Below are positions 11,061 to 64,000 of a DNA stretch of 64,000 nt, in pieces. How positions within the stretch are numbered: position 1 is the stretch's first letter; the number at the start of each line of letters is the position of its first letter. A model generated the notes under the pieces. The model saw only the letters and a list, made by a program, of their open reading frames with translations, made no database searches and was not told the origin of the DNA. This DNA comes from Chloroflexota bacterium (GTDB taxonomy: Bacteria; Chloroflexota; Dehalococcoidia; Tepidiformales; Tepidiformaceae), in the NCBI GenBank assembly GCA_016234445.1, contig JACRBT010000008.1, positions 9,109-73,108 on the forward strand. The letters are read 5' to 3'. A program made the translations under genes and the position numbers.

Positions 11061-12164
11061 CTAATCGCAGTAGTCGGTGAGGCCGACTTCGATGTACAGG
11101 CTCAAGAACGCCGACCAGTAGTACCAGCGGGAGGCGCAGTTCGACCAGTCGTAGTTGGCGTATCCGTTTTCAAAGGACATCTGCCAGATGGTGCCGCCGA
11201 TGGAGCCGCCATCATTCAGGGGATATCCAAGGTAGTACATACCGTCCTTGCCGGTCGCCCAGGGGTCCGTGTAGGGACCCAGCAGCCCGCGGCTCATGAA
11301 GACAGCAAAGCTCGACGACGAGTCCTTGAAGACCGCGTGCTCACCGTTGCCAGATCCTGTCCCCTTGAACGTCTGCACGCGCCCGGCCCGGCTCGCGCCG
11401 TTGACGTCGGTGAAATTGCACGGGTACCAGCCCGGCGTTGCCGACGACCCGCACGTCGTCGCCGGAGATCGACCCGGCGTCCAGGACGAAATGCTGGCGG
11501 TGGAGCCGACCACGTCCCACTTGCCCGCGGACCAGTACTTCTGCCGGATGGGGTCGTCGTAGACGATTGGGTTGGCCTCCGAGTAGCCTGCTGAACGGTT
11601 GTCTGAGGTACACGTTAGGCAGCCGCCGACCGGACAGTCCGCACCTCCGTTATCCCAACCAGTGTGGCTGTTCATCGTAAATGGGGCGCTTGTCGTCCCG
11701 GTGGTATTCGTATTCTTCTGGAAATGAACATGTATGCCGTCGCAACGACCGGTGCAGCCAGCCGTGCCGATCTGAAATCCCTGGGGTACGTTGGTTCCCG
11801 TAAACCCATTGCAAGTGACTAAATGAGCGTAGAGAGAGGATGTACTCCCGTGCGTGATACGCACAAAGTTTCCAAATGACGGGTCATCCGTGGTGCAGGT
11901 GGCGTATCCATCTGATGCCGCATAGACCAGCTGCGTCGGGCTCGGATCATATCGGACGTCTATTGCATAAAAGAGCCCGCTGGCTGACGTGTGGCTGGTG
12001 GCACCGTTCCAGCCCTGGCTCATTTTCCAGGCTACGTCTTTCGCCCATGGCCACCGGTAGAACTCCCACCGGTTGTTGTTGTGGTCGGCAAGAGAGGAAT
12101 CCGGGAGCCCGATGGCGATGATAAGCAGCCCAACGGCAAACGCGATTCTTCGCAGGGTGTTCAT
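11061..12164 (-). CDS. Secreted M23 (lysostaphin-type) metallopeptidase with a C-terminal LGFP-like putative wall-binding region
   Basis: Signal peptide MNTLRRIAFAVGLLIIAIG. M23 elements are SH..(x)..AIDV, SLYAHL and GIHVHF. The C-terminus carries YYLGYPL...GGTIWQMSFENG. The region is lower in GC than the flanks. Confidence 0.7.
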   Translation of the reverse strand: MNTLRRIAFAVGLLIIAIGLPDSSLADHNNNRWEFYRWPWAKDVAWKMSQGWNGATSHTSASGLFYAIDVRYDPSPTQLVYAASDGYATCTTDDPSFGNFVRITHGSTSSLYAHLVTCNGFTGTNVPQGFQIGTAGCTGRCDGIHVHFQKNTNTTGTTSAPFTMNSHTGWDNGGADCPVGGCLTCTSDNRSAGYSEANPIVYDDPIRQKYWSAGKWDVVGSTASISSWTPGRSPATTCGSSATPGWYPCNFTDVNGASRAGRVQTFKGTGSGNGEHAVFKDSSSSFAVFMSRGLLGPYTDPWATGKDGMYYLGYPLNDGGSIGGTIWQMSFENGYANYDWSNCASRWYYWSAFLSLYIEVGLTDYCD

Positions 12165-12892
12165 TTCAACGCGATCCCCGTGAGCAAGGCCATCGCTTCA
12201 GCAAGGGTCTTAAGGTCCGCGGGCAGCGCCACATGCACGGCGGCCACGAGATACCCGCCCCTTGGGCTTGGCGCCGAAACAAACAGCGTAAGGGCACCGA
12301 TTCCCGGGTCCAATCCGACACCGTCGCGGAACTGCGTGCCGATAATCTCAGCGTCGCGCCCACTGATGCTCCGGACGAACCGCACTTGATGGAACATCCC
12401 CGAGTCATCTCTGCCGACCGAGTAGGTCACCAGGGCGGTTTCGGTGCGGATGTCCGCCCACACGTCGCCCGGCGACGGTGAGAACTCCCCAGGAGTTGCC
12501 GGGAGGTTCGCAACCTTGAGCACCTTGGCGTAGTCACCGATAACCTTCTCGCCCAGGTAATCGTGCTGCTCCCGTGTCGTGACCGTCCATGACGCCGGGG
12601 CACGGACCGTGAGCTCACCCCGGGGGCCCGCGTAGGCCACCCATTCCTTCGTGTCCACCGGCGGCAGCGTCGCCGGGTCGAAACGTTCCGCAACGTCGAG
12701 CTTCGCGTCGTTCGCGACGGAGGTCGCGCTTGGGTTGGCGGTGACGCTGGCATCGCCCGCGGCGGCGGTGGGCGCTGCGCTCGGGCCCGTATCCGACAAC
12801 GGGCCGCTTGTGACCAGGATAATCCCGGTGGCCGTGGCGCCACCGAGAATTCCCGCAGTCGCGAGACCGACCATGAGCCATGAAGGAATCAT
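12161..12892 (-). CDS. Membrane-anchored hypothetical protein (N-terminal TM, extracytoplasmic domain)
   Basis: 243 aa. The N-terminal helix is WLMVGLATAGILGGATATGIILV, followed by an Ala/Ser/Thr linker. It overlaps the M23 gene start by 4 nt, suggesting an operon. Confidence 0.55.
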   Translation of the reverse strand: MIPSWLMVGLATAGILGGATATGIILVTSGPLSDTGPSAAPTAAAGDASVTANPSATSVANDAKLDVAERFDPATLPPVDTKEWVAYAGPRGELTVRAPASWTVTTREQHDYLGEKVIGDYAKVLKVANLPATPGEFSPSPGDVWADIRTETALVTYSVGRDDSGMFHQVRFVRSISGRDAEIIGTQFRDGVGLDPGIGALTLFVSAPSPRGGYLVAAVHVALPADLKTLAEAMALLTGIALK

Positions 12893-36173: not shown

Positions 36174-36228
36174 CTGAGTCCCCAGTCCCCAGTCCCAAGT
36201 CCTAAACCCTAAGTCCCAAGTCCTCGCC
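36174..36228. repeat. Tandem heptanucleotide (STRR-like) array, CCCAGTC/CCAAGTC type
   Basis: CTGAGTC CCCAGTC CCCAGTC CCAAGTC CTAAACC CTAAGTC CCAAGTC, abutting the dnaK stop codon (36229-36231). Confidence 0.85.
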
Positions 36229-38121
<1,893 letters not shown>

Positions 38122-38134
38122 GTGTTTCCTCCGG

Positions 38135-38305
38135 GAGCTATTAGCTCTTAGCTACTAGCCGTTAGTGTTTTGGAAGCTGTTAGCTGTTGGCTGTTAGCTC
38201 TTAGTGTTTTTGAAGCTGTTAGCCGTTAGCTATTAGTGCGCTCCGTTCGTCAGCCTGCGATTCATCTCACTCCACGTACTACTAATAGCTAACAGCTAAT
38301 AGCTA
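38135..38305. repeat. Heptamer (TTAGCTN/GCTGTTA) arrays in both orientations forming a long inverted repeat in the grpE-dnaK spacer
   Basis: The left arm 38214-38237 (agctgttagccgttagctattagt) pairs with 38281-38304 (actaatagctaacagctaatagct) at 22 of 24 positions. The loop is 43 nt. Confidence 0.8.
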
Positions 38306-38827
38306 TCAGCTGCCTCCCACGATTACCATCGCCGGACGGATGACCCGGTCGCCCACCATGTAGCCCTTCTGGGCCACGTAGAGGACCTTGCCTTCTTCGC
38401 CCGGCTGCTTGCCGACCGCTTCGTGGCGCGCCGGGTCGAAGGTCTCGCCCTCGGCCGGCACTTCCTTCACCTGCATCGACTCCAGCAGCTGGGCGAACTT
38501 GCGGTGGATGGCCACCACGCCCTGCACCCAGTTCAGCCCCGCCAGGTTCGCGTCGACCGTCGAAACCGCCCGGTCGAGGTCGTCGAACACGGGCAGGAGG
38601 TTGATGACGAGGGCCGCGTTGTAGAGCCGCGCCGTCTCCGAACGCTCCTGCTCCACCCGCCGCTTGAAGTTGATGAAGTCGGCCGTCGCGCGCTGCCAGT
38701 TCTTGTAGTACGTCTCCGCGAGTTCCTCCGCCGTCGGCTGCGGGTTGTCGGCCACGGGCTCTTCGCCGCCGCGCGGTTCCGCCGCCGAAGGTTCGTCCAC
38801 CGTGCTTTCGTCCTGGTTGCCTGCCAT
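38306..38827 (-). CDS. grpE: Nucleotide exchange factor GrpE
   Basis: YKNWQRATADFINFKRRVEQE and FDPARHEAV. ATG 38827; the longest ORF runs to 38842. Confidence 0.9.
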   Translation of the reverse strand: MAGNQDESTVDEPSAAEPRGGEEPVADNPQPTAEELAETYYKNWQRATADFINFKRRVEQERSETARLYNAALVINLLPVFDDLDRAVSTVDANLAGLNWVQGVVAIHRKFAQLLESMQVKEVPAEGETFDPARHEAVGKQPGEEGKVLYVAQKGYMVGDRVIRPAMVIVGGS

Positions 38828-38843
38828 GTGCCCTCCGCCCAAC

Positions 38844-39875
38844 TCAGTCTTCGCCGTAGTACTTGCGCATCAGTTCGGTCAGCACGTCCGCGACGTAGCG
38901 AACGTGGGCGACGCTTTCGCCGTAGGCCATCCGCGTCGGGCCAAGGACCCCGAGCACGCCGCCGGCGCCGCCCGGGGGGCCGTAGCGCGCCAGCACGAAG
39001 CTCATGTCCTGGTAGGGGCCGGCCTGGTTTTCGTCGCCGATGACGATCGCCACGTCGCCCGCGTCGACCGAGCCCGAGGGTATCGCCCCCCGGAGGCGAC
39101 GTTCGTCGACCGCTTCGAGCGTGTCGAGCATGCGGTCGCTGTCGCCGAACTCCGGCTGGCGGAGCATGTCGCGCACGCCTTCGACCACCGGCGCCTCGGA
39201 CACGATCGCCTGTTCGTGGAGCAGCATCTCGGCCACGGCCGCGACCACGATGGACTCGACCGCGCCGAGCGGTTCGGCCACCGTCTTCTGGCCCATCTCG
39301 GCCGCCATCTTCCCGCCGAACCCCGCGTTCAGACGCGAAGCCAGCCGCGTCAGCGCCTCCTGGTTCACCGGTGACGGGAACTCCAGCGTCTGCTGGTGGA
39401 CCGCCGTGTCGTTCGTCACCACCACGAGCAGCGCCCGGTTTTCGGCTAGTTCGACCAGTTGGAGCTGCTTCAGCCGGACTTCCCGGACCCGCGGCTGGGT
39501 GACCAGCGCCACGTTGTGGAGCGAATTCGCGAGCACGCTCGCCGCCAGCCCGACCCATTCCTCCAGTTGCCGCGCGCTCTGGTGGAACTGGTGGAGGATG
39601 GTCATCTGTTCGGTGCGGGAAAGGTCGCGTTCGGGCATGAGCGACGAGACGTAGTAGCGGTAGCCGCGGTGGCTGGGGATGCGACCGGCCGACGTGTGGG
39701 GGTGGGTGACCATCCCTTCGTCTTCGAGCGCCGCCATCTCGTTGCGGACGGTGGCGGGCGAAAGGCCGAGGGCATGCCGCGCCACGAGCGCCTGCGACCC
39801 GACTGGGGAGGCGCTATCGACGTAGTCGTCGACGATGAAGGCGAGGATGCGCGCGCGGCGCTCTGACAACGTCAT
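38844..39875 (-). CDS. hrcA: Heat-inducible transcription repressor HrcA
   Basis: LSERRARILAFIVDDYVDSASPVGSQALV and SPATVRNEMAALEDEG. ATG 39875; the track starts at TTG 39881. Confidence 0.9.
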   Translation of the reverse strand: MTLSERRARILAFIVDDYVDSASPVGSQALVARHALGLSPATVRNEMAALEDEGMVTHPHTSAGRIPSHRGYRYYVSSLMPERDLSRTEQMTILHQFHQSARQLEEWVGLAASVLANSLHNVALVTQPRVREVRLKQLQLVELAENRALLVVVTNDTAVHQQTLEFPSPVNQEALTRLASRLNAGFGGKMAAEMGQKTVAEPLGAVESIVVAAVAEMLLHEQAIVSEAPVVEGVRDMLRQPEFGDSDRMLDTLEAVDERRLRGAIPSGSVDAGDVAIVIGDENQAGPYQDMSFVLARYGPPGGAGGVLGVLGPTRMAYGESVAHVRYVADVLTELMRKYYGED

Positions 39876-39896
39876 TATCAACCCTGCAGGCCCACT

Positions 39897-39923
39897 CTAG
39901 CACTCCCCCATGGAGAGTGCCAG
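39897..39923 (-). promoter_or_regulatory. CIRCE operator (HrcA binding site) upstream of hrcA
   Basis: The minus strand reads CTGGCACTC-N9-GAGTGCTAG, against the consensus TTAGCACTC-N9-GAGTGCTAA. Confidence 0.8.
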
Positions 39924-40008
39924 CCGACCCCCTGCCACGATCGTAGGCGGCGGGCGAGAGGGGGTCAATGGGGGTTGGCAGCGAGGTCCCTCGGCGGGTC
40001 GCCGTTCG

Positions 40009-40512
40009 TCAGACCCAAGCCACGGCGAGAAGTGCGGTGTTGATCACCGCTAGCGCCACCGATGCCCAGAACATCGGCCTGACGGTAGCGGCGGGGATGA
40101 CCCCCCAGGTCCAAGCGCCATTGTAGTCTCCAGGACGCAGTCTTAAAGGCACATAAAAAATCCAGAAGACCACAGCGATCGTCAAGGCACCGACGAGCGC
40201 GAACGAGCCAACCAAGTGATCGAAGACCGACCGGTCTCCGGCTATCGGGGCCAGTGAAGCAACCACAGTAAGTAGCGGCCCAATGACGATAGCCGAGACG
40301 TCTGAACTGAATCTCGCAAATGCAACTACATCAGCTACGTAGTTCGGGCGATCCGCCACACGAATACTATTCCAGTAAGTCGGTGGGCCAGATCCTACAC
40401 GACTGGGTATTAGGTGAGAGCCCAGCCAGACCTGCGCCAACCCCTGAAGCAAGAACGGCACCACAATTGCGACGAGGGACGCCGCCACACCGTATGCCCT
40501 AAGTTCGCTCAA
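40009..40512 (-). CDS. Hypothetical small polytopic membrane protein (cassette gene 3)
   Basis: 167 aa with 4-5 hydrophobic helices. Its start overlaps the stop of the upstream gene by 4 nt. Low-GC codon usage. Confidence 0.55.
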   Translation of the reverse strand: MSELRAYGVAASLVAIVVPFLLQGLAQVWLGSHLIPSRVGSGPPTYWNSIRVADRPNYVADVVAFARFSSDVSAIVIGPLLTVVASLAPIAGDRSVFDHLVGSFALVGALTIAVVFWIFYVPLRLRPGDYNGAWTWGVIPAATVRPMFWASVALAVINTALLAVAWV

Positions 40513-40907
40513 CTGATGACGGCCCCCACGGTGTAAGAATCTTGGAATTGGCGCGACCTACCTGGCAACCTACGCCCCTTCGAGGTATATCTTGGCATTC
40601 CATAGAACTCAAATGCAGTGATTACTGTCACCCCGACGCTCGGCGACGAGCCGATAACCGTCACGGCGAAGTCACAGCTACCCCATTGGCCGGGACTGAT
40701 CTCGTCCGTCCTGCAAGGTGGCTCGAAGGCCAGAACGCTAGGACGACTTGACACACCGATCTCTATCGTCACCCGGTGAGACCGATGACTTTGATAACGC
40801 ACTTCGTGCTTCCGACCACTATCCCTAACTGTCATCGGTAGCGGCTGTGCTGGGTTCAAATGCAGCTCGTAGTCGAACTCTTCCTGCTTACCTTGCTTGC
40901 TAACCAC
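40509..40907 (-). CDS. Hypothetical protein (cassette gene 2)
   Basis: 132 aa with a beta-rich-looking sequence and no recognisable motif. There is a 14-nt gap to the upstream gene. Confidence 0.5.
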   Translation of the reverse strand: MVSKQGKQEEFDYELHLNPAQPLPMTVRDSGRKHEVRYQSHRSHRVTIEIGVSSRPSVLAFEPPCRTDEISPGQWGSCDFAVTVIGSSPSVGVTVITAFEFYGMPRYTSKGRRLPGRSRQFQDSYTVGAVIS

Positions 40908-40921
40908 TGGCCCCTCTCGCG

Positions 40922-41812
40922 CTAGCTAAGGATGGCGGCGTCGAACATCAGGCCAGCGGATGCCACGATTTCTGGCACTGCCTCCGCTCGTTCTACAGAG
41001 ACGTAGCCGGTTCCATCGCTGAACATGGTCACTTCGCCCGCGTCGGGCGCGGTGACATGGGCCGCAACGACATCGCCTCTCGCGAACCCTGGGGCATGCT
41101 CCACGATGTCACCTGCAAACTCGACCCATTGCCGCCTCCCTGCGCCCTCGGACTCGAAGAAAGCCGTGAGGCTATCATTTCGAACCTCCAAGGCCCATGG
41201 AACAAGGTTCGGGCCATAGCCCGCGCCCAGCCTTCTGGAGGCTGACAGCCGAGCTTCGACCGCCCTGGCAAAGGCGACCGGGTCTTGGAGCTCGCTGTCT
41301 GCCCATCCCATGGGCGAAGCATGCAGGGTCTTCCACGCGACGGCTTGAAAGCGAGATACGACTCTACGCGCCGGCGAAACGCAGCCGAGCAATAGACTAT
41401 CGTCAGCGAAGCGGCGTACGAACACCGCCGATTTAATCGTGGCGTCCGGCTTCGCCGCCACCCAGGGATTCACGGGGGGCTCGAGCGGATCGGTGATCTC
41501 GATGATACCGCCGGACGCCTTGGCGATCTCCGATTGGGGGAAGGCCTTCGCGGTTGCCTTCTGAACGTCCTCGAATGCCGTACGGGGGGGAATCCACGCA
41601 CAAGCAAATCGTAGCTCCGGGAGCCTTTCAGTCACTCTGGTGGCCCCGTTGGCTGCGCCGGCTGAACACGATATGCATCGCCGTCTACCCCGCTCCCACC
41701 CCAGGTGGGCTCTTGTGAATTCCGTCGCAATCTGACTTGGACGATGGCCAAGTATAATATCCGGCATCCCGCTGTCAACCACAAGCGCTCCGCGGCGCGG
41801 TTGACGGCGCAA
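40922..41812 (-). CDS. Hypothetical protein (cassette gene 1)
   Basis: 296 aa (alternative ATG 41767) with no recognisable motif. Low-GC region. Confidence 0.5.
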   Translation of the reverse strand: MRRQPRRGALVVDSGMPDIILGHRPSQIATEFTRAHLGWERGRRRCISCSAGAANGATRVTERLPELRFACAWIPPRTAFEDVQKATAKAFPQSEIAKASGGIIEITDPLEPPVNPWVAAKPDATIKSAVFVRRFADDSLLLGCVSPARRVVSRFQAVAWKTLHASPMGWADSELQDPVAFARAVEARLSASRRLGAGYGPNLVPWALEVRNDSLTAFFESEGAGRRQWVEFAGDIVEHAPGFARGDVVAAHVTAPDAGEVTMFSDGTGYVSVERAEAVPEIVASAGLMFDAAILS

Positions 41813-41891
41813 GATGCTCTTCTGTTATCTATCGGCGTTCGGCCCGCGCAAGCGTAGTGGGACCCGAGCCTGTCGAGGTATACTCCCGCCC

Positions 41892-42146
41892 ATGGCATCA
41901 GGACAAGCCCTCATCGACCTCTGCAAGCGGCACCTCGTCGAGACGATGCAGGCGCTTCCCGAGTGCGCTCCGGAAGGTCCCGGCCTCGGCCAGAAGGCGC
42001 TGGAGGAGGCAGCCGGTTTCGAGCTGAGTCTCCCCGAGTACGACGGTTACTTCACATGGTCGTTGCTCGTCGCGCTCACCATCGATGGCAAGGTCGAGGC
42101 GATCCAGCCCGGCAAGCGCAACAAGAAGTACCGGCTCGCCGGTTAG
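41892..42146 (+). CDS. Small hypothetical protein, possibly winged-helix
   Basis: ATG 41892 within ORF 41814..42146. 84 aa, divergent from the cassette. The C-terminus reads TWSLLVALTIDGKVEAIQPGKRNKKYRL. Confidence 0.45.
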   Translation: MASGQALIDLCKRHLVETMQALPECAPEGPGLGQKALEEAAGFELSLPEYDGYFTWSLLVALTIDGKVEAIQPGKRNKKYRLAG

Positions 42147-42156
42147 CCCCGCTTCG

Positions 42157-42191
42157 CCTCAGCCCTCAGTCCCCAGTCCTCGACCCTTCTC
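42157..42191. repeat. Tandem heptamers CCTCAGC/CCTCAGT/CCCCAGT
   Basis: cctcagc cctcagt ccccagt cctcgac ccttctc, starting 10 nt after the stop at 42146. Confidence 0.7.
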
Positions 42192-42219
42192 CTCCCAACT
42201 CCCGTACACTCGGGACACC

Positions 42220-42900
42220 GTGCCGACTCCTCCCCCCTCCCCCCCCGCTCCTCCCTCCATCGGCCTCCTCGGCGGCACCTTCGACCCGCCGCACATCGGC
42301 CACCTGGTGCTGGGGGAATGCGCGCGGGTGCAATTCGGCCTCGACAAGGTCATCTTCCTCCCCGCCGGCGACCCGTGGCGGAAGACAGGACTTAGGACTG
42401 AGGACTCAGGACTGAGGACTGAGATGCCTTCGCCGGCCGAGCACCGATTGGCGATGGTGCGGCTGGCGGTCGCCGGCAACCCCCACTTCGAAGTCGACGA
42501 CCGCGAGGTCCGCCGTCCCGGCCCCACCTACACCGTGGATACACTCGAGGAGTACCGAGTACCGAGTACCGAGTACCGAGTGGGGCCGGCGCTTGTCCTC
42601 ATCCTCGGGAGCGATGCGCTCGCCGACATGCCCAACTGGAAGGACCCCGACCGCATCCGCGCCCTCGCCACCCTCGCCGTCGCCCCCAAACCCGCCACCG
42701 CAGACGTGGACCCGGGACTCGGGACTCAGTACCCGGCACTCACCATCGACATGCCGCCGCTGGCCATCAGCTCGACCGTCATCCGCGCGCGCGTCGCCGC
42801 CGGCAAGCCCATCCGCTACCTCGTCCCCGAAGCGGTCGAAGCCTACATCCGCGAACACATGCTCTACGTGGGGGTGAAGCGCCAGCCGCCGGGGGTTTAG
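42220..42900 (+). CDS. nadD: Nicotinate-nucleotide adenylyltransferase, carrying three in-frame heptamer-repeat insertions
   Basis: IGLLGGTFDPPHIGH, FLPAGDPWRK, AEHRLAMVRLAV and ISSTVIRARVAAGK. A GTG 42220 start is proposed; the longest ORF begins at 42085. Confidence 0.85.
   Translation: MPTPPPSPPAPPSIGLLGGTFDPPHIGHLVLGECARVQFGLDKVIFLPAGDPWRKTGLRTEDSGLRTEMPSPAEHRLAMVRLAVAGNPHFEVDDREVRRPGPTYTVDTLEEYRVPSTEYRVGPALVLILGSDALADMPNWKDPDRIRALATLAVAPKPATADVDPGLGTQYPALTIDMPPLAISSTVIRARVAAGKPIRYLVPEAVEAYIREHMLYVGVKRQPPGV
42388..42422. repeat. Five tandem heptamers GGACT(T/G/C)A inside nadD
   Basis: ggactta ggactga ggactca ggactga ggactga, encoding GLRTEDSGLRTE. Confidence 0.85.
42550..42581. repeat. 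(GAGTACC)x4 plus a partial unit, inside nadD
   Basis: gagtacc x4 followed by gagt, encoding EYRVPSTEYRV. Confidence 0.85.
42714..42734. repeat. GGGACTC GGGACTC AGTACCC inside nadD
   Basis: Three heptamers (21 nt, 7 codons) encoding GLGTQYP. Confidence 0.7.
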
Positions 42901-42951
42901 CTGTTAGCTGTTAGCTGTTAGCTGTTAGCTGTTAGCTGTTAGCTGTTAGTT
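42895..42951. repeat. (GTTAGCT)n tandem heptamer array overlapping the nadD stop codon
   Basis: GTTTAGCT, then six perfect GTTAGCT units, then GTTAGTT. The nadD TAG (42898-42900) lies in the first unit. Confidence 0.9.
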
Positions 42952-42963
42952 GGGGACGGTCGC

Positions 42964-43230
42964 CTACGACCCCTTGTACACGTCCCCGCGTGGGCCGATC
43001 TCCGCGACATCCACGATTCGGACTTCGTCGTCCACGGAATAGAGGATTCGCAGCGAACCACACCGCGCTCGGCGCACACCATCCGTTCGGCCGTGCAGGG
43101 CAGGGAACTGCGGGGCGTAGGGGTCCTCGCAAATCTCAAGGATCTTCGCATGCACCAACCGGCGCCGCTTGGCATCGAGGCGGCCGAAGTAGCGCTCGGC
43201 TGCTCCGGAAACGCGGTAGCTGTAGTTCAA
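42964..43230 (-). CDS. RelE/ParE family type II toxin
   Basis: 88 aa with RARCGSLRILYSVDDEVRIVDVAEIGPRGDVY, typical of RelE/ParE. It overlaps the upstream antitoxin gene by 4 nt. Confidence 0.8.
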   Translation of the reverse strand: MNYSYRVSGAAERYFGRLDAKRRRLVHAKILEICEDPYAPQFPALHGRTDGVRRARCGSLRILYSVDDEVRIVDVAEIGPRGDVYKGS

Positions 43231-43439
43231 AGGTCGTACTTGCGCTCAAACTCTTCGCGCGTCACGAAGTCGCCGCGTTCCATCGCCGCCCTGGCCTCGA
43301 GGAGGCGCTCCTCCTCTTCGGAGGTCAGCGTGTCGTCGGCGCAAAGCCACTCCCACAGCGCCCGGAGCTCCTCCGGCGGCAGTTGCTCGATGTACTGGTG
43401 CAGGTCGGCCTTCAGCGAAGTGAGCTCGGCGGTGGTCAT
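43227..43439 (-). CDS. Putative antitoxin (addiction-module component)
   Basis: ATG 43439. 70 aa, helical and acidic (LKADLHQYIEQLPPEELRALWEWL...GDFVTREEFERKY). Translationally coupled to the toxin. Confidence 0.65.
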   Translation of the reverse strand: MTTAELTSLKADLHQYIEQLPPEELRALWEWLCADDTLTSEEEERLLEARAAMERGDFVTREEFERKYDL

Positions 43440-43576
43440 GCCCCCCAGTATACGCCAGCCCGATAGCCGGTGGCCGTCGGCCGACAGCCGATCGCCCCCG
43501 AGGGCTGTGCTACGATGGATCTCCACTTCCCCCGGGAGCCACTCCGTTCGCGTACGTACCGCTTCGCCATCCCTTC

Positions 43577-46500
43577 ATGGACCGCCTGCGGGAGCAGGTG
43601 TTGTTCGCTGCCGGGCCGATCGGCTCGAGCATCCTCGCCATGCGCCCGGGGCCGGACTACGGCGAGGTCGACGGCTGTAACGAATACCTCAACATCTCCG
43701 ACCCGGCGGCCCTCGAAGCCATCTTCCGCGGCTTCTACGCCGCCGGGGCCGACGCCGTCGATTCGGGTACGTTTGGGGCGAACGAAGTCGTCCTCGCCGA
43801 ATTCGGGCTCGCCGCCCGCACCCGCGAGCTCAACCGCGTCGCCGCGCAGCTTCTCGGGGCCGTCCGCGACGAGTTCAGCACCGCCGAGTGGCCCCGCTAC
43901 AGCTTCGGCACGATCGGCCCCGGCACCCGGCTTCCCACCCTCGGCCACGTCACCTGGGACGAACTCGTCCACAGCTACCGCGAACAGGCGCTCGGCCTCG
44001 TCGAAGGCGGGATCGACGTCCTCAAGGTCGAAACCTGCCAGGACCTCCTCCAGACGAAGGCCGCTCTCGCCGCGATCAGCGACGTCTTCGCCGAGACCGG
44101 CGCCCGCCTCCCCGTTATCGCCAGCGTCTCCGTCGAGACGAACGGCACCATGCTCCTCGGCTCCGACATCTCCAGCGCCCTGACCACCCTCGAAGCGATC
44201 GACATCGTCGACATCATCGGCCTCAACTGCTCCCTCGGGCCGGACCTGATGATGGAGCACGTCCGCTACCTCGGCGAACACTCGCGGCGGCCGGTGTTCG
44301 TCGGCCCGAACGCCGGGCTCCCGGAACTGGTCGACGGCGAGGCATGCTATCCCCTCAGCCCGGACGAATTCGCCCGCTACCAGTCGATCTTCGTGGACGA
44401 ATTCGGGATCAACGTCGTCGCCGGCTGCTGCGGCACCACCCCGGAGCACATGGCGGCCGCCATCAACGTGGTCGGCCGGCGCGCGCCGAAAGCCCGCCCA
44501 ACGAGCGGCTACGAACCGGGCTGCTCCTCGATCTATACGGCCGTCCCCTTCCGCCAGGAAACCTCCTTCCTCGTCGTCGGCGAACGCACGAACGCGACCG
44601 GCTCCCGCGCCTTCCGCGACCTCCTCCTCGCGGGCGACCTCGACGGCATGGTCGGCCTCGCCCGCGAACAGGCCGCCGAAGGGGCGCACGTCCTCGACGT
44701 CATGGTCGACTACGTCGGCCGCGACGGCGTCGCCGACATGGAGAAGGTGGCCGGCGCCTTCCGCACCCAGACGACCCTGCCTCTCATGTTCGACTCCACG
44801 GAGCCGCCGGTCATCGAAACCGCGCTCAAGCTCTACGGCGGCAAGGCGATCGTCAACTCCATCAACCTCGAAGACGGCGAGCGCAAGATCACCCGCGTCC
44901 TACCGCTGTTGAAGCGCTACGGGGCCGCCGCCGTCGCCCTCACCATCGACGAAGAGGGTCAGGCCCGGACCACCGAGTGGAAGCTCCGCGTTGCCCACCG
45001 CATCCACGACATCGCCGTGAACCGGTACGGCCTCGAACCTTCCGACCTCCTCTTCGACATGCTCACCTTCCCCCTCTCCGGCGGCCAGGAAGACCTTCGC
45101 GGCGACGCGATCGAGACCCTCAACGCCATCCGCCAGGTCAAGGCCGAACTCCCGGGGGTGAACACCATCCTCGGCGTCTCGAACTGCTCATTCGGGCTGA
45201 AGCCGGCCGCCCGGCGGGTGCTCAACTCCGTCTTCCTCCACGAGGCGATCGACCACGGCCTCGACGCCGCGATCATCAACGCCCGCCAGATCCTGCCCCT
45301 GAACCGCATCCCCGAACCCCAGCTTCTCGCCGCCCGCGACCTCATCTACGACCGCCGCCGGCCCGACTACGACCCCCTCCACCACTTCATCGGCCTCTTC
45401 GAAGGCGCCGAAGTCGAGAAGACCTCGAAGCCCGACCGCGCCAGCCTTCCGGTCGAGGAGCGCCTCAAGCAGCGGATCATCGACGGCGATCGCAAGGGCA
45501 TCGAAGCCGACCTCGACGAAGCCCTCTCCGGCCGCGGCGCCCTTGCCATCGTCAACGAGATCCTCCTCGACGGCATGCGCGTCGTGGGCGACCTCTTCGG
45601 CTCCGGGAAGATGCAGCTGCCGTTCGTCCTCCAGAGCGCCGAGACGATGAAGACCTCCGTCGCCTACCTCGAACCGCACATGGAGAAGGCCGAGGGCGCC
45701 GGCAAGGGCACGGTCGTGCTCGCCACCGTCCGCGGCGACGTCCATGACATCGGCAAGAACCTCGTCGACATCATCCTTTCGAACAACGGCTACACAGTGC
45801 ACAACATCGGGATCAAGCAGCCCATTGCCAACGTCATCGAAAAGGCGGCGGAGGTCGGGGCCGACGCGCTCGGGCTCAGCGGGCTGCTCGTCAAGAGCAC
45901 GGTCGTCATGCGCGAAGACCTCGAAGAGCTGAACGCCCGGGGGCTCGCGCGCTACCCGGTGCTCCTCGGCGGGGCCGCGCTCACGCGCAAGTACGTCGAA
46001 TCCGACCTCCGCGCGATCTACGACGGCAACGTCTTCTACTGCCAGGACGCGTTCGAGGGCCTTTCGACGATGGACCACGTGATGGCCGCCGTCCGCTCCG
46101 GCGAACCCCTGACGGCGCTCACGCGCGGCGCGAAGCCGGTCGAAGGCGGCGTTTACGACACCGTCCGGGCCACCGTCCCCGCTGCCGCGGCCCGCGCCGC
46201 CGAACGCGAGTACGTTCGCTCCGACGTCCGCCGCCTGGCCCCCGCCGAGATCCCGGTGCCGCCGTTCTGGGGCAGCCGCGTCGTCGCCGGCATCCCCCTG
46301 CGCGACGTCTTCCCGTGGGTGAACGAGACCGCCCTCTTCCGGGGCCAGTGGCAGTACCAGAAGGGCGAACGCAGCGACGGCGAATACGCCGCTTTCGTCG
46401 AAAACGAAGTGCGCCCCGTCTTCCGGCGCTGGCAGGACCGCGCCATCAAGGAGCAGCTCCTGGTGCCACAGGTGGCCTATGGCTACTTCCCCTGCATCGC

Positions 46501-55300: not shown

Positions 55301-55475
55301 GCGATCGGGGGAGCGCCTCAGTCGCCACCGGAGGCGCTGTTACTTCGTTCGCGCGTCGAAACTGCCCTTCCTGGAGACCGCGCCGAAGAGGTGGGCTTCA
55401 CAGGGCCCGGGGGAACTTCTACTTAACGATTTGCCTAGATTCTACCTTACGCTTACACTTCGGCGAGGAGGTGCC

Positions 55476-56141
55476 ATGGAGATGACCTTGGACCATTCGT
55501 TACGAAATCGCCGGTTCTTGGAGCGGTTCCCAGAGGACTTTCTGGCGGATGTCGTGAAGGCGCTCGTCGAACTCTACCCCGAGACATACGACGCAGCGCG
55601 CGAGTTTCCCCTTGCGTACGCTCGGTATCTCCGTCCCCACTTTCTAAGAACCAAGGCTGAACTGAGCTTCCTGGCGCTCGCTCAAAAGCATGCCGTTCCG
55701 GCGAGCACGAGTTTCAATAGCAGCTTGGACGCCCACGCCCTTGTTGCAGAGCCGCCCTTCGTCGGCACCCTCTCTCGCCTTCCTTATCGCAGGGCCGTTC
55801 CCAGGCGGGCGACGTTCCGGCGCATGTATGCGTCTTATCACTCGATGGCCCAGTACCCGCTGGCAGGGTTGGGCGATGGAGCGGTGCCGTTACAGATTGA
55901 CGAGGGGCCCGTTCCTGAGTATGTCATCTTTGGCCATGGCTCGGCCTCCCCCCACGCTCGGGACATCGCCTTCGTGGTGGTGAACTTTGTGGGGGCCACT
56001 GGTAGGTATGTCGGGCGCCCTATCGACCTCCTCAGCCAGTTCGGCGGCAGCGCGGCGCCGGTCGCTGAAGAGACGGTGCGCGACGTTCTAGGTATCGCGC
56101 CGAAAACACGCAGTCACGAGGAAGCCGTAGGGGGGAAATGA
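55476..56141 (+). CDS. Hypothetical protein (islet gene 1)
   Basis: ATG 55476 follows GAGGAGG. 221 aa with no recognisable motif. Its stop overlaps the start of the next gene (ATGA). Low GC. Confidence 0.5.
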   Translation: MEMTLDHSLRNRRFLERFPEDFLADVVKALVELYPETYDAAREFPLAYARYLRPHFLRTKAELSFLALAQKHAVPASTSFNSSLDAHALVAEPPFVGTLSRLPYRRAVPRRATFRRMYASYHSMAQYPLAGLGDGAVPLQIDEGPVPEYVIFGHGSASPHARDIAFVVVNFVGATGRYVGRPIDLLSQFGGSAAPVAEETVRDVLGIAPKTRSHEEAVGGK

Positions 56142-57292
56142 GACCCGGAACGCCTGGATTCGTTGGCTCGCGTCTGCGCGAGGCGCGTGAGGCCATGGGG
56201 TTGACGTCGGCCACCCTAGCCGACCTTGCCAACATCTCGCGCGCAGCGATCTCCCAGTTCGAGAACGGACACGCCACGCCCCACCCCGAGGTCGGGCGGA
56301 ACCTGGCGGAAATCCTCCACGTACGACCGGGCTACTTCCTGTTGCCGGCTCGCGCTGGAGCCTCCAACGTATTCTTCCGATCCCAAGCTTCCCTGACCCT
56401 TCGGGCGCGTCTCCGTGGATCACGGAAGATCGATCGGTTGGCCGACTTACTCGTGGCGCTGCGCGAGAGCCTTCGCCTGCCAGCGGTGAACTTCCCTCCG
56501 CCGTTCCCCGGGACCGATGATCCGCTCTTTCTTCAGGATGACTCTATCGAACAAGCGGCCCGGGAGACGAGGCGATTCTGGGGACTCGGAGAGGGACCGA
56601 TCTCTAACATCGTTTGGTTGTTGGAGAATAACGGTGCAGTTATTTCCAGAATGGACTTCCATGAGCGTCAAATGGACTCCTGGTCACAGTGGAAAGATAT
56701 CGACCAGATGCCTTTAATCGTTCTAAATAGCGATAAAGCCTCAGCTGTCCGCTCGCGCTTTGATGTCTCACACGAGCTCGGCCATCTGATTTTACATCGA
56801 TTTGTTCCGTCTGTCTACTGGAATACTGCGGATGCGGCCAAAATTAGGGAGCAACAGGCACACAGATTCGCGTCCGCGTTCCTCATGCCGGAAGACACCT
56901 TCGGCTCTGAGGTAGGCTTTCCTTCGCTTAATCGCTTCCTCGCGTTGAAGCCACGCTGGCGCACCTCAATAGCAAGTATGATAACGAGGACGGATGGGCT
57001 CGGGTTAATTACCGACGAGCACGCTAAGCGTCTCTGGCAGAGTCTCTCGCGGCGTCACTGGAGGACATGGGAACCACTTGACGATTCGATGGCACCGGAA
57101 CAGCCGCGCCTCTTACCGAGGGCATTCGCGGTTCTCCGTGAGATGGACCAGTTCGCTCCGGCACGCCTCGTTGACGAGGCCGAATTGAACCCTGAGGAGA
57201 TAGCCACACTGGCAATGCTGCCCCACGACTTCTTCGACGCGGGCGCCGTGAACATCATTCCCTTCCGACGCGGGCTATCCGACCACTCGTAG
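56138..57292 (+). CDS. Xre-type HTH fused to an ImmA/IrrE (COG2856) zinc metallopeptidase domain
   Basis: The N-terminal HTH reads LREAREAMGLTSATLADLANISRAAISQFENG. The HExxH motif reads SHELGHLILH, with a downstream AHRFASAFLMPE. Confidence 0.8.
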   Translation: MRPGTPGFVGSRLREAREAMGLTSATLADLANISRAAISQFENGHATPHPEVGRNLAEILHVRPGYFLLPARAGASNVFFRSQASLTLRARLRGSRKIDRLADLLVALRESLRLPAVNFPPPFPGTDDPLFLQDDSIEQAARETRRFWGLGEGPISNIVWLLENNGAVISRMDFHERQMDSWSQWKDIDQMPLIVLNSDKASAVRSRFDVSHELGHLILHRFVPSVYWNTADAAKIREQQAHRFASAFLMPEDTFGSEVGFPSLNRFLALKPRWRTSIASMITRTDGLGLITDEHAKRLWQSLSRRHWRTWEPLDDSMAPEQPRLLPRAFAVLREMDQFAPARLVDEAELNPEEIATLAMLPHDFFDAGAVNIIPFRRGLSDHS

Positions 57293-57380: not shown

Positions 57381-57613
57381 ATGCAAGCGTAGCTCATACA
57401 TGGGGAGCCGTCGGCTCCTTATGCAAGTCTGGCCAGTATATGGAGCCGTCCGGGGTTCCTTAGACAAGTCTGGCCACCACATGGAGCCGTCCGGGGTTCC
57501 TTAGGCAAGTCTGGCCCACTCCATGGAGCCGTCCGGGGTTCCTTAGGCAAGTCTGGCCACTCCGTGGAGCCGTCCGGGGTTCCTTAGGCAAGTCTGGCCA
57601 CTCCGTGGAGCCG
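57381..57613 (+). repeat. Tandem array of five 40-42-nt hairpin-containing repeats plus degenerate flanking partial units
   Basis: Units start at 57401, 57441, 57482, 57524 and 57565. The consensus is TGGAGCCGTCCGGGGTTCCTTAGGCAAGTCTGGCCACTCCG. A partial unit lies at 57381-57400 and a truncated one begins at 57606. Confidence 0.9.
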
Positions 57614-63945: not shown

Positions 63946-63987
63946 GGGTACCGAGTCCCCAGTCCCGAGTCCCGAGTCCCGAGTCCC
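63946..63987. repeat. Tandem heptamers GAGTCCC/CAGTCCC directly after the mgtE stop
   Basis: ggggtac c gagtccc cagtccc gagtccc gagtccc gagtccc, beginning at the base after the TAG (63943-63945). Confidence 0.85.
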
Positions 63988-64000
63988 GTCCGCGCCCCGC

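Follow-up and report, generated by a model that had tools for sequence, protein, structure and literature searches.

The window analysed here is a 64,000 nt stretch of the 73-kb contig JACRBT010000008.1, from a metagenome-assembled genome (MAG) of a Chloroflexota bacterium (NCBI locus tags HY875_). It contains some 1.9 kb of acquired DNA (ca. 39976–41872, G+C 0.60), situated between two conserved backbone promoters, those of hrcA and of orf84, a divergent 84-codon gene adjoining nadD. This cargo holds three co-directional open reading frames (ORFs), designated orf1, orf2 and orf3 and together called the cassette. Comparison with relatives firmly supports that the variable slot of a hotspot, dominated in those relatives by restriction and defence genes, was filled, or its earlier contents replaced, by a foreign, promoter-equipped operon of three ORFans. 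Its function is more tentative: from position and layout, we place at about 0.4 the probability that the cassette is a lineage-restricted module directed against phages or other mobile elements.

A defence hotspot between orf84 and hrcA

The relatives compared were Tepidiformaceae and other Dehalococcoidia MAGs, whose HrcA proteins are 95–62 % identical to that of the window; a HrcA scan with one genome per species yielded 23 loci, and four more were obtained via orf84 (loci are designated by L numbers). Relatives of orf1, orf2 and orf3 were absent from the 23 hrcA loci (tblastn, E ≤ 1e-3) and from the four extra ones, and comparison of the cargo with these loci by blastn and tblastx returned only short compositional noise, with no frameshifted known gene in any frame. 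The site is empty in two relatives, with 195 nt between orf84 and hrcA in L011 and 164 nt between nadD and hrcA in L022. On the left side of the cargo, similarity of the backbone starts at the -35 region of hrcA, CCCATTGACCC, and upstream of orf84 similarity to the relatives reaches only the -10 box, GGTATACT, 7 nt before the ATG. The ending of similarity at these two boxes delimits the cargo to ca. 39976–41872 and leaves orf84 in the backbone. The left border (39897–39968, minus strand), conserved in all aligned relatives, thus comprises the hrcA promoter (TTGACC, 17 nt, TACGAT; 39940–39968) and the operator CIRCE (controlling inverted repeat of chaperone expression; 39897–39923), whose presence had been noted before; the right border is orf84 (41892–42146, plus strand).

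The same flanks, orf84/nadD and hrcA, bracket from 0.16 to 5.1 kb of unrelated contents in L002–L006, L008, L011, L021, L022, L024 and L026. Cargo at the site in relatives points in either direction and its G+C is mostly lower (0.56–0.63, versus 0.61–0.69 for the whole loci). Among 24 relatives, 14 carry recognised restriction or defence genes at the site, two have it empty, six show other synteny and in two the contigs are too short. The 14 defence-type sites hold GmrSD type IV restriction enzymes (L002, L003 and L026), McrBC (L018 and L024), HNH proteins (L008 and L009), DndB with HATPase_c_3 (L004), a HATPase restriction endonuclease-like protein (L021) and, in five cases, restriction-modification genes with a C5 methylase, which is accompanied by HhH-GPD, a PDC-M33A-like ATPase and two unknowns in L005, by DUF4928 and Vsr in L006, by MvaI/BcnI in L010, by a PLD-like protein in L012 and by HNH_2 in L014. 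With fixed core flanks, variable content and this enrichment in defence genes, the site is a core-gene-flanked defence hotspot in the relatives examined.

The composition of the cassette is also foreign to its surroundings. The cargo has a G+C of 0.601, against 0.689 for the remainder of the window, in agreement with the low G+C claimed originally, and the hand counts behind that claim (97/180 and 40/60) were exact on recount; windowed values are 0.56–0.64 over the cassette region and 0.68–0.71 in the flanks. At third codon positions, G+C (GC3) is 0.69 in orf1, 0.60 in orf2 and 0.62 in orf3, compared with 0.86–0.92 in dnaK, grpE, hrcA, nadD and metH. Absence from the relatives, empty sites, junctions at promoters and foreign composition coincide, so that horizontal acquisition into a housekeeping interval, as the original prediction had it, is well supported, and the comparison of the hrcA-nadD interval that it suggested turned up no relative with the cassette.

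No integrase or transposase gene was found in the cargo, the flanking repeats are chance-level matches of 10–17 nt with none resembling att sites, and the whole window lacks tRNA genes. The cargo is therefore not an integrative mobile element of the prophage, integrative and conjugative element or insertion sequence type, and the lack of an integrase and of flanking repeats leads us to infer that homologous recombination within the conserved flanking sequence turns over the contents of the site. Core-gene-flanked defence hotspots (cDHS) rich in unknown genes, real systems among them, have been described in Pseudomonas aeruginosa (PMC10250203), and the defence-island hotspots of Escherichia coli are a comparable concept (PMC10121019). 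Our site shares with cDHS the fixed core flanks, the variable and mostly lower-G+C content, the dominance of restriction and defence genes, the presence of unknown genes and the many occupied sites without a mobility gene. Unlike them, it is much smaller (0.16–5.1 kb), usually with one system per genome, belongs to an uncultivated Chloroflexota lineage, has no tRNA or tmRNA landing site, and its junctions coincide with two promoters. The phenomenon of hotspots is thus already known, whereas this hotspot and the three protein families of the cassette are new.

The original prediction presented the divergent 84-aa gene as a winged-helix-like regulator belonging to the cassette; the second part of this was not sustained. 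Gene orf84 is 70–93 % identical beside nadD in L002, L003, L004, L006, L011 and L026–L029, with different cargo or none, and always adjoins nadD, also in one relative whose site is empty. It thus belongs to the conserved backbone and was rejected as the regulator of the cassette. Its -10 box (TATACT, 41879–41884) lies 7 nt before the ATG and leaves no room for a Shine-Dalgarno sequence, which suggests that the mRNA is leaderless; both box and start are conserved in L002, L003 and L011 regardless of the upstream cargo. Across six homologues, 37 positions are invariant. The protein had no Pfam, NCBIfam or PHROGs match, and a profile of the six sequences matched nothing among the PDB sequences, so that the helix-turn-helix label lacks Pfam and PDB support.

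Other cargo seen at the site in relatives includes an ORF of 195–213 aa, conserved and rich in Cys and Trp, in L002 (5468–6055, plus strand) and L003 (5257–5898, plus strand), where it separates orf84 from the GmrSD gene. The L002 copy, which was the one scanned, had no Pfam or PADLOC match, and the GmrSD genes of L002 and L003 are in opposite orientation despite sharing this ORF, which may be a partner of GmrSD or an independent cargo gene. In L005 (4499–7904, minus strand), the gene of the 639-aa PDC-M33A-like protein and, behind it, two genes for unknowns (251 and 245 aa) form a co-directional trio that adjoins the C5 methylase gene and is another candidate system whose proteins are mostly unassigned.

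Transcription and coding status of the cassette

The coordinates originally given for the four ORFs were exact, as were the 14 nt gap between orf1 and orf2 and the 4 nt overlap (TTGA) of orf2 with orf3. On the minus strand, the maximal ORF of orf1 (40922–41812, 296 aa, from TTG 41812) is followed by orf2 (40509–40907, 132 aa), with a hydrophilic product predicted to be all-beta, and by orf3 (40009–40512, 167 aa, or 159 aa if the start is GTG 40488), with a predicted membrane protein as product; orf84 contributes its 84 codons on the opposite strand.

A search for promoter-like sites found two, against 0.5 expected, the second being the conserved hrcA promoter. The first, of the sigma-70 type, lies at 41751–41778 on the minus strand (TTGACA, 16 nt, TATACT) and matches the consensus at 11 of 12 positions. 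Its location inside the maximal ORF implies a later start codon for orf1, and the first in-frame start downstream is GTG 41635. The extension thus left out (41636–41812) has a G+C of 0.64, 0.64 and 0.58 at the three codon positions, with no coding periodicity, and a codon score of -0.03. Because of the internal promoter and the lack of coding signal in this segment, the 296-aa form was rejected as a probable over-extension; orf1 most likely codes for a soluble protein of 237 aa (40922–41635), preceded by a 5′ untranslated region of ca. 109 nt. At the other end of the cassette, no terminator was seen at 39935–40030, between the orf3 stop codon (40009) and the hrcA promoter (fold z-score +1.1), which makes read-through into the hrcA-grpE-dnaK operon possible, and transcripts of the cassette may thus extend into hrcA. 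An Rfam search (E ≤ 1) of positions 38000–44000 returned nothing relevant.

The length of the ORFs alone is weak evidence that they are genes, since 7 % of random sequences of the same composition (first-order Markov) contain a stretch of 237 codons or more with no stop, and 1.2 % one of 296 codons or more. The tiling of the cargo, the membrane pattern of orf3 and codon usage are stronger tests. Tiling was assessed with ORFs of 120 aa or longer that share a strand and do not overlap, by comparison with 5000 composition-matched random sequences. The three ORFs cover 1794 of the 1897 nt (95 %), a value that none of the 5000 simulations matched; with the conservative 237-aa orf1, three of them matched the coverage. 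The opposite strand of the cargo has no ORF of at least 120 aa. The original prediction of four to five hydrophobic helices in the product of orf3 agrees with the four transmembrane (TM) segments detected, at residues 8–26, 72–90, 100–118 and 147–165 (19-residue windows with a mean Kyte-Doolittle value of at least 2.0). Not one among 5488 random ORFs of 130 aa or longer equalled the grand average of hydropathy of this product (0.92); only one of them had three or more TM segments, and none the four-segment pattern. The coding strand of orf3 is rich in T (AT skew).

Codon usage was scored with a model trained on 13 Pfam-validated cargo genes of similar G+C from the same site in relatives. Leave-one-out scores of the training genes ranged from +0.044 to +0.143 per codon, and random ORFs had a mean of -0.015 (standard deviation 0.044, 99th percentile 0.085). 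With a log-odds of +0.094 per codon, the 237-aa form of orf1 exceeds the 99th percentile of the null ORFs, and orf3 (+0.063) is near the 95th percentile, whereas orf2 (+0.029) falls inside the null range. As for translation signals, a Shine-Dalgarno-like sequence, GAGAGGGG, is found 3 nt upstream of the GTG of orf2, inside the 14 nt spacer that follows the orf1 stop codon, and the TTG start codon of orf3 overlaps the orf2 stop codon. These results support well that orf1 and orf3 are genuine genes. Coding status is weakest for orf2, the case for which comes mainly from its placement, with the Shine-Dalgarno-like site on one side and the overlapping orf3 start on the other, and from an all-beta structural model of modest confidence. 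In addition, the occurrence of three ORFans in one promoter-driven, translationally coupled operon, with a polytopic membrane protein among the products, argues against spurious ORFs. The cassette resembles the lineage-specific ORFans of genomic islands in its lack of homologues in any database, its atypical composition and its location in a variable region, and differs from them in precisely this coupled organization.

Homologues and possible function

Searches of Pfam, NCBIfam, PADLOC and PHROGs with the products of orf1, orf2, orf3 and orf84 returned nothing at E ≤ 1, except for a match of orf2 to a holin family of PHROGs (E = 0.45) that we took as due to chance. This agrees with the original reading, in which none of several signatures named there (P-loop, nuclease, HEPN and others) was recognized in the three cassette proteins. 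A word-indexed search of 5.8 billion clusters retrieved only the query for each ORF. With orf1, 1.84 billion representatives were also searched exhaustively by HMMER, which retrieved the query and one match at E = 9e-4 (P0004); the latter, a repeat protein that accumulates its score over the repeats, was likewise rejected as chance. Homologues of the three ORFs were not found by tblastn in phage and plasmid collections, where a match to a histidine kinase (E = 0.5) was discarded, nor in scans of viral contigs and metagenomes, and searches of PDB sequences gave nothing except a chance match for orf3 (E = 0.85). At the sequence level, orf1–orf3 are therefore strict ORFans, with no detectable relative among the ca. 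15 billion sequences searched. Two Logan contigs (L001 and L025) do contain the cassette; since they are 100 % identical to the window, with no polymorphism, they do not amount to an independent copy.

The Foldseek comparison advised in the original prediction was carried out on single-sequence AlphaFold2 models of low confidence and led to no assignment. The model of orf1 has a mean predicted local distance difference test (pLDDT) value of 37 and its Foldseek matches were noise. That of orf2, with eight strands and a pLDDT of 48, matched generic immunoglobulin-like beta-sandwiches (E ≥ 4.6e-3, TM-score ≤ 0.5), and these matches were not used to deduce function. The product of orf2 is, judging from this model, probably a beta-sandwich protein.

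Several small anti-phage operons, such as Kiwa (KwaB and the four-TM KwaA), RexAB and variants of cyclic oligonucleotide-based anti-phage signalling systems (CBASS) and retrons with TM effectors, encode a small polytopic membrane protein besides soluble ones. The cassette resembles these operons in having soluble components and a protein with about four TM helices, and in being compact, co-directional and located in a defence-rich region. It differs from them in its gene order, in the extra small beta-protein and in the lack of a recognizable sensor or enzymatic domain, as well as in being known from sequence alone. It is not a Kiwa system, for PADLOC and Pfam gave no match to KwaA, KwaB or DUF4868 in spite of the four TM helices of orf3. 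The cytoplasmic products of orf1 and orf2 could sense infection or keep the system in check, and the small polytopic product of orf3 could be a membrane-acting effector or an anchor, for an outcome of the abortive-infection or exclusion type. According to the positive-inside rule, the larger, positively charged loops of orf3 (residues 27–71 and 119–146) would be cytoplasmic and could contact orf1 or orf2.

The original reading of the cassette as a defence module gains support from location, because the site holds restriction or defence genes in relatives; its function is read from position and layout, with a probability of about 0.4 for a module against phages or mobile elements. We regard as doubtful the more specific proposal of a working anti-phage system made of three protein families without relatives, in which a soluble sensor pair controls a four-TM effector. 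A number of results weigh against a role in defence. None of the four ORFs, orf84 included, was recognized by the 5027 models of PADLOC-DB v2, and no catalytic motif was found in orf1–orf3. Known defence systems are usually widespread, and the three genes were not seen together in any other genome, an outcome named beforehand as a refutation; the lack of any homologue means that there is neither co-occurrence nor conservation, nor any sign of selection, which limits confidence in what position and layout indicate. Further adverse points are the unreliability of the structural models, the null-range codon score of orf2 and the Fic protein that L009 carries at the site, a non-defence cargo. Also, the NCBI annotation by PGAP includes orf1 (237 aa, MBI5948499.1) and orf84 and leaves out orf2 and orf3, and of two Logan gene-caller runs on identical DNA, one called the three ORFs and the other orf1 only.

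An alternative is a functional accessory cargo devoid of immune function, which could be a membrane-protein toxin or addiction module, what is left of a mobile element in the manner of a moron (involved, for example, in superinfection exclusion) or a niche membrane function lodged in a site permissive for recombination. The promoter, the codon score and the pattern of tiling and TM helices that argue for real genes serve this explanation as well as they serve defence, the variable sites of relatives do hold non-defence genes (the Fic/DOC protein of L009 and HhH-GPD glycosylases), and a ParE toxin-antitoxin pair lies 0.8 kb from the cassette. We nevertheless consider it unlikely, given that there was no match to Pfam, toxin-antitoxin or phage families, that integrase genes, att-like repeats and nearby tRNA genes are lacking and that the 14 annotatable occupied sites all carry restriction or defence genes. 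A type II toxin-antitoxin system in particular does not describe the cassette, with no Pfam or NCBIfam match and three genes (237, 132 and 167 aa) rather than a two-gene unit.

Non-functional DNA appears quite improbable. In this reading the insert would be junk or in decay, and no protein would be made from some, or even any, of the ORFs, orf2 in particular. The strict ORFan status, the frequency of long open runs in random sequences, the codon score of orf2, the very low AlphaFold2 confidence and the omission of orf2 and orf3 by PGAP and by one of the Logan runs are what this explanation would lead one to expect; they are opposed by the same-strand tiling, the codon score of orf1 and the four-TM pattern seen in orf3, by the near-perfect promoter, the Shine-Dalgarno-like sequence and the start/stop coupling, and by the failure of tblastx to reveal a frameshifted known gene. 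Lastly, a role as an accessory, housekeeping or regulatory, to the heat-shock operon hrcA-grpE-dnaK, with orf84 as regulator, would fit a cassette immediately upstream of hrcA, in the same orientation and with no terminator between them, but is effectively refuted by the comparative data, because the cassette is foreign in composition and absent from every relative, whereas hrcA-grpE-dnaK and orf84 are conserved, cargo in the relatives points in either direction and orf84 keeps its own leaderless-type promoter whatever the cargo.

Other features of the window and significance of the hotspot

Among the flanking gene products, HrcA, GrpE, a NadD-like cytidylyltransferase and a ParE toxin were corroborated, as was the presence of heptamer tandem repeats near the cassette. 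These heptanucleotide arrays, similar to the short tandemly repeated repetitive sequences of cyanobacteria, are situated at 42157–42181, 42387–42423, 42550–42581, 42708–42727 and 42897–42949, with others at 36177–36223, 38136–38236 and 63951–63988, and their units include CCTCAGT, AGGACTG, GAGTACC, GGACTCG and TTAGCTG, among others. Three of the arrays lie within the nadD frame, which stays open and gains peptide repeats such as GLRTEDSGLRTE and EYRVPSTEYRV, and one array overlaps the nadD stop codon.

The window contains a second island of low G+C (ca. 0.60; 55431–57292 and 57416–57613), coding for a 236-aa unknown and for a 384-aa protein in which an XRE-type helix-turn-helix N-terminus and an HExxH (ImmA/IrrE-like) motif were read by eye. 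Directly after this island there is a 41 nt tandem repeat (4.8 copies, 93 % matches). A third stretch of lower G+C (ca. 0.62; 11061–12892) has two co-directional ORFs (367 and 243 aa); their products carry hydrophobic segments at the N-terminus and may be secreted or cell-envelope proteins.

These results describe a clean, previously undescribed core-gene-flanked defence hotspot in an uncultivated family of the Chloroflexota, and reveal a membrane protein gene, orf3, that the public annotation of this MAG misses. Searches for new immune genes in the phylum could use this interval, bounded by the orf84-nadD and hrcA promoters, as a simple anchor. Were the cassette inert, it would illustrate how far inference from position reaches for ORFans. 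An immune role, in turn, would mean three entirely new protein families and would show that hotspot position can reveal singletons missed by enrichment-based discovery, which needs many homologues. Should it be a working anti-phage system, it would exemplify how immunity genes of very recent origin, or with extremely fast evolution, arise in a defence hotspot of uncultivated Chloroflexota.

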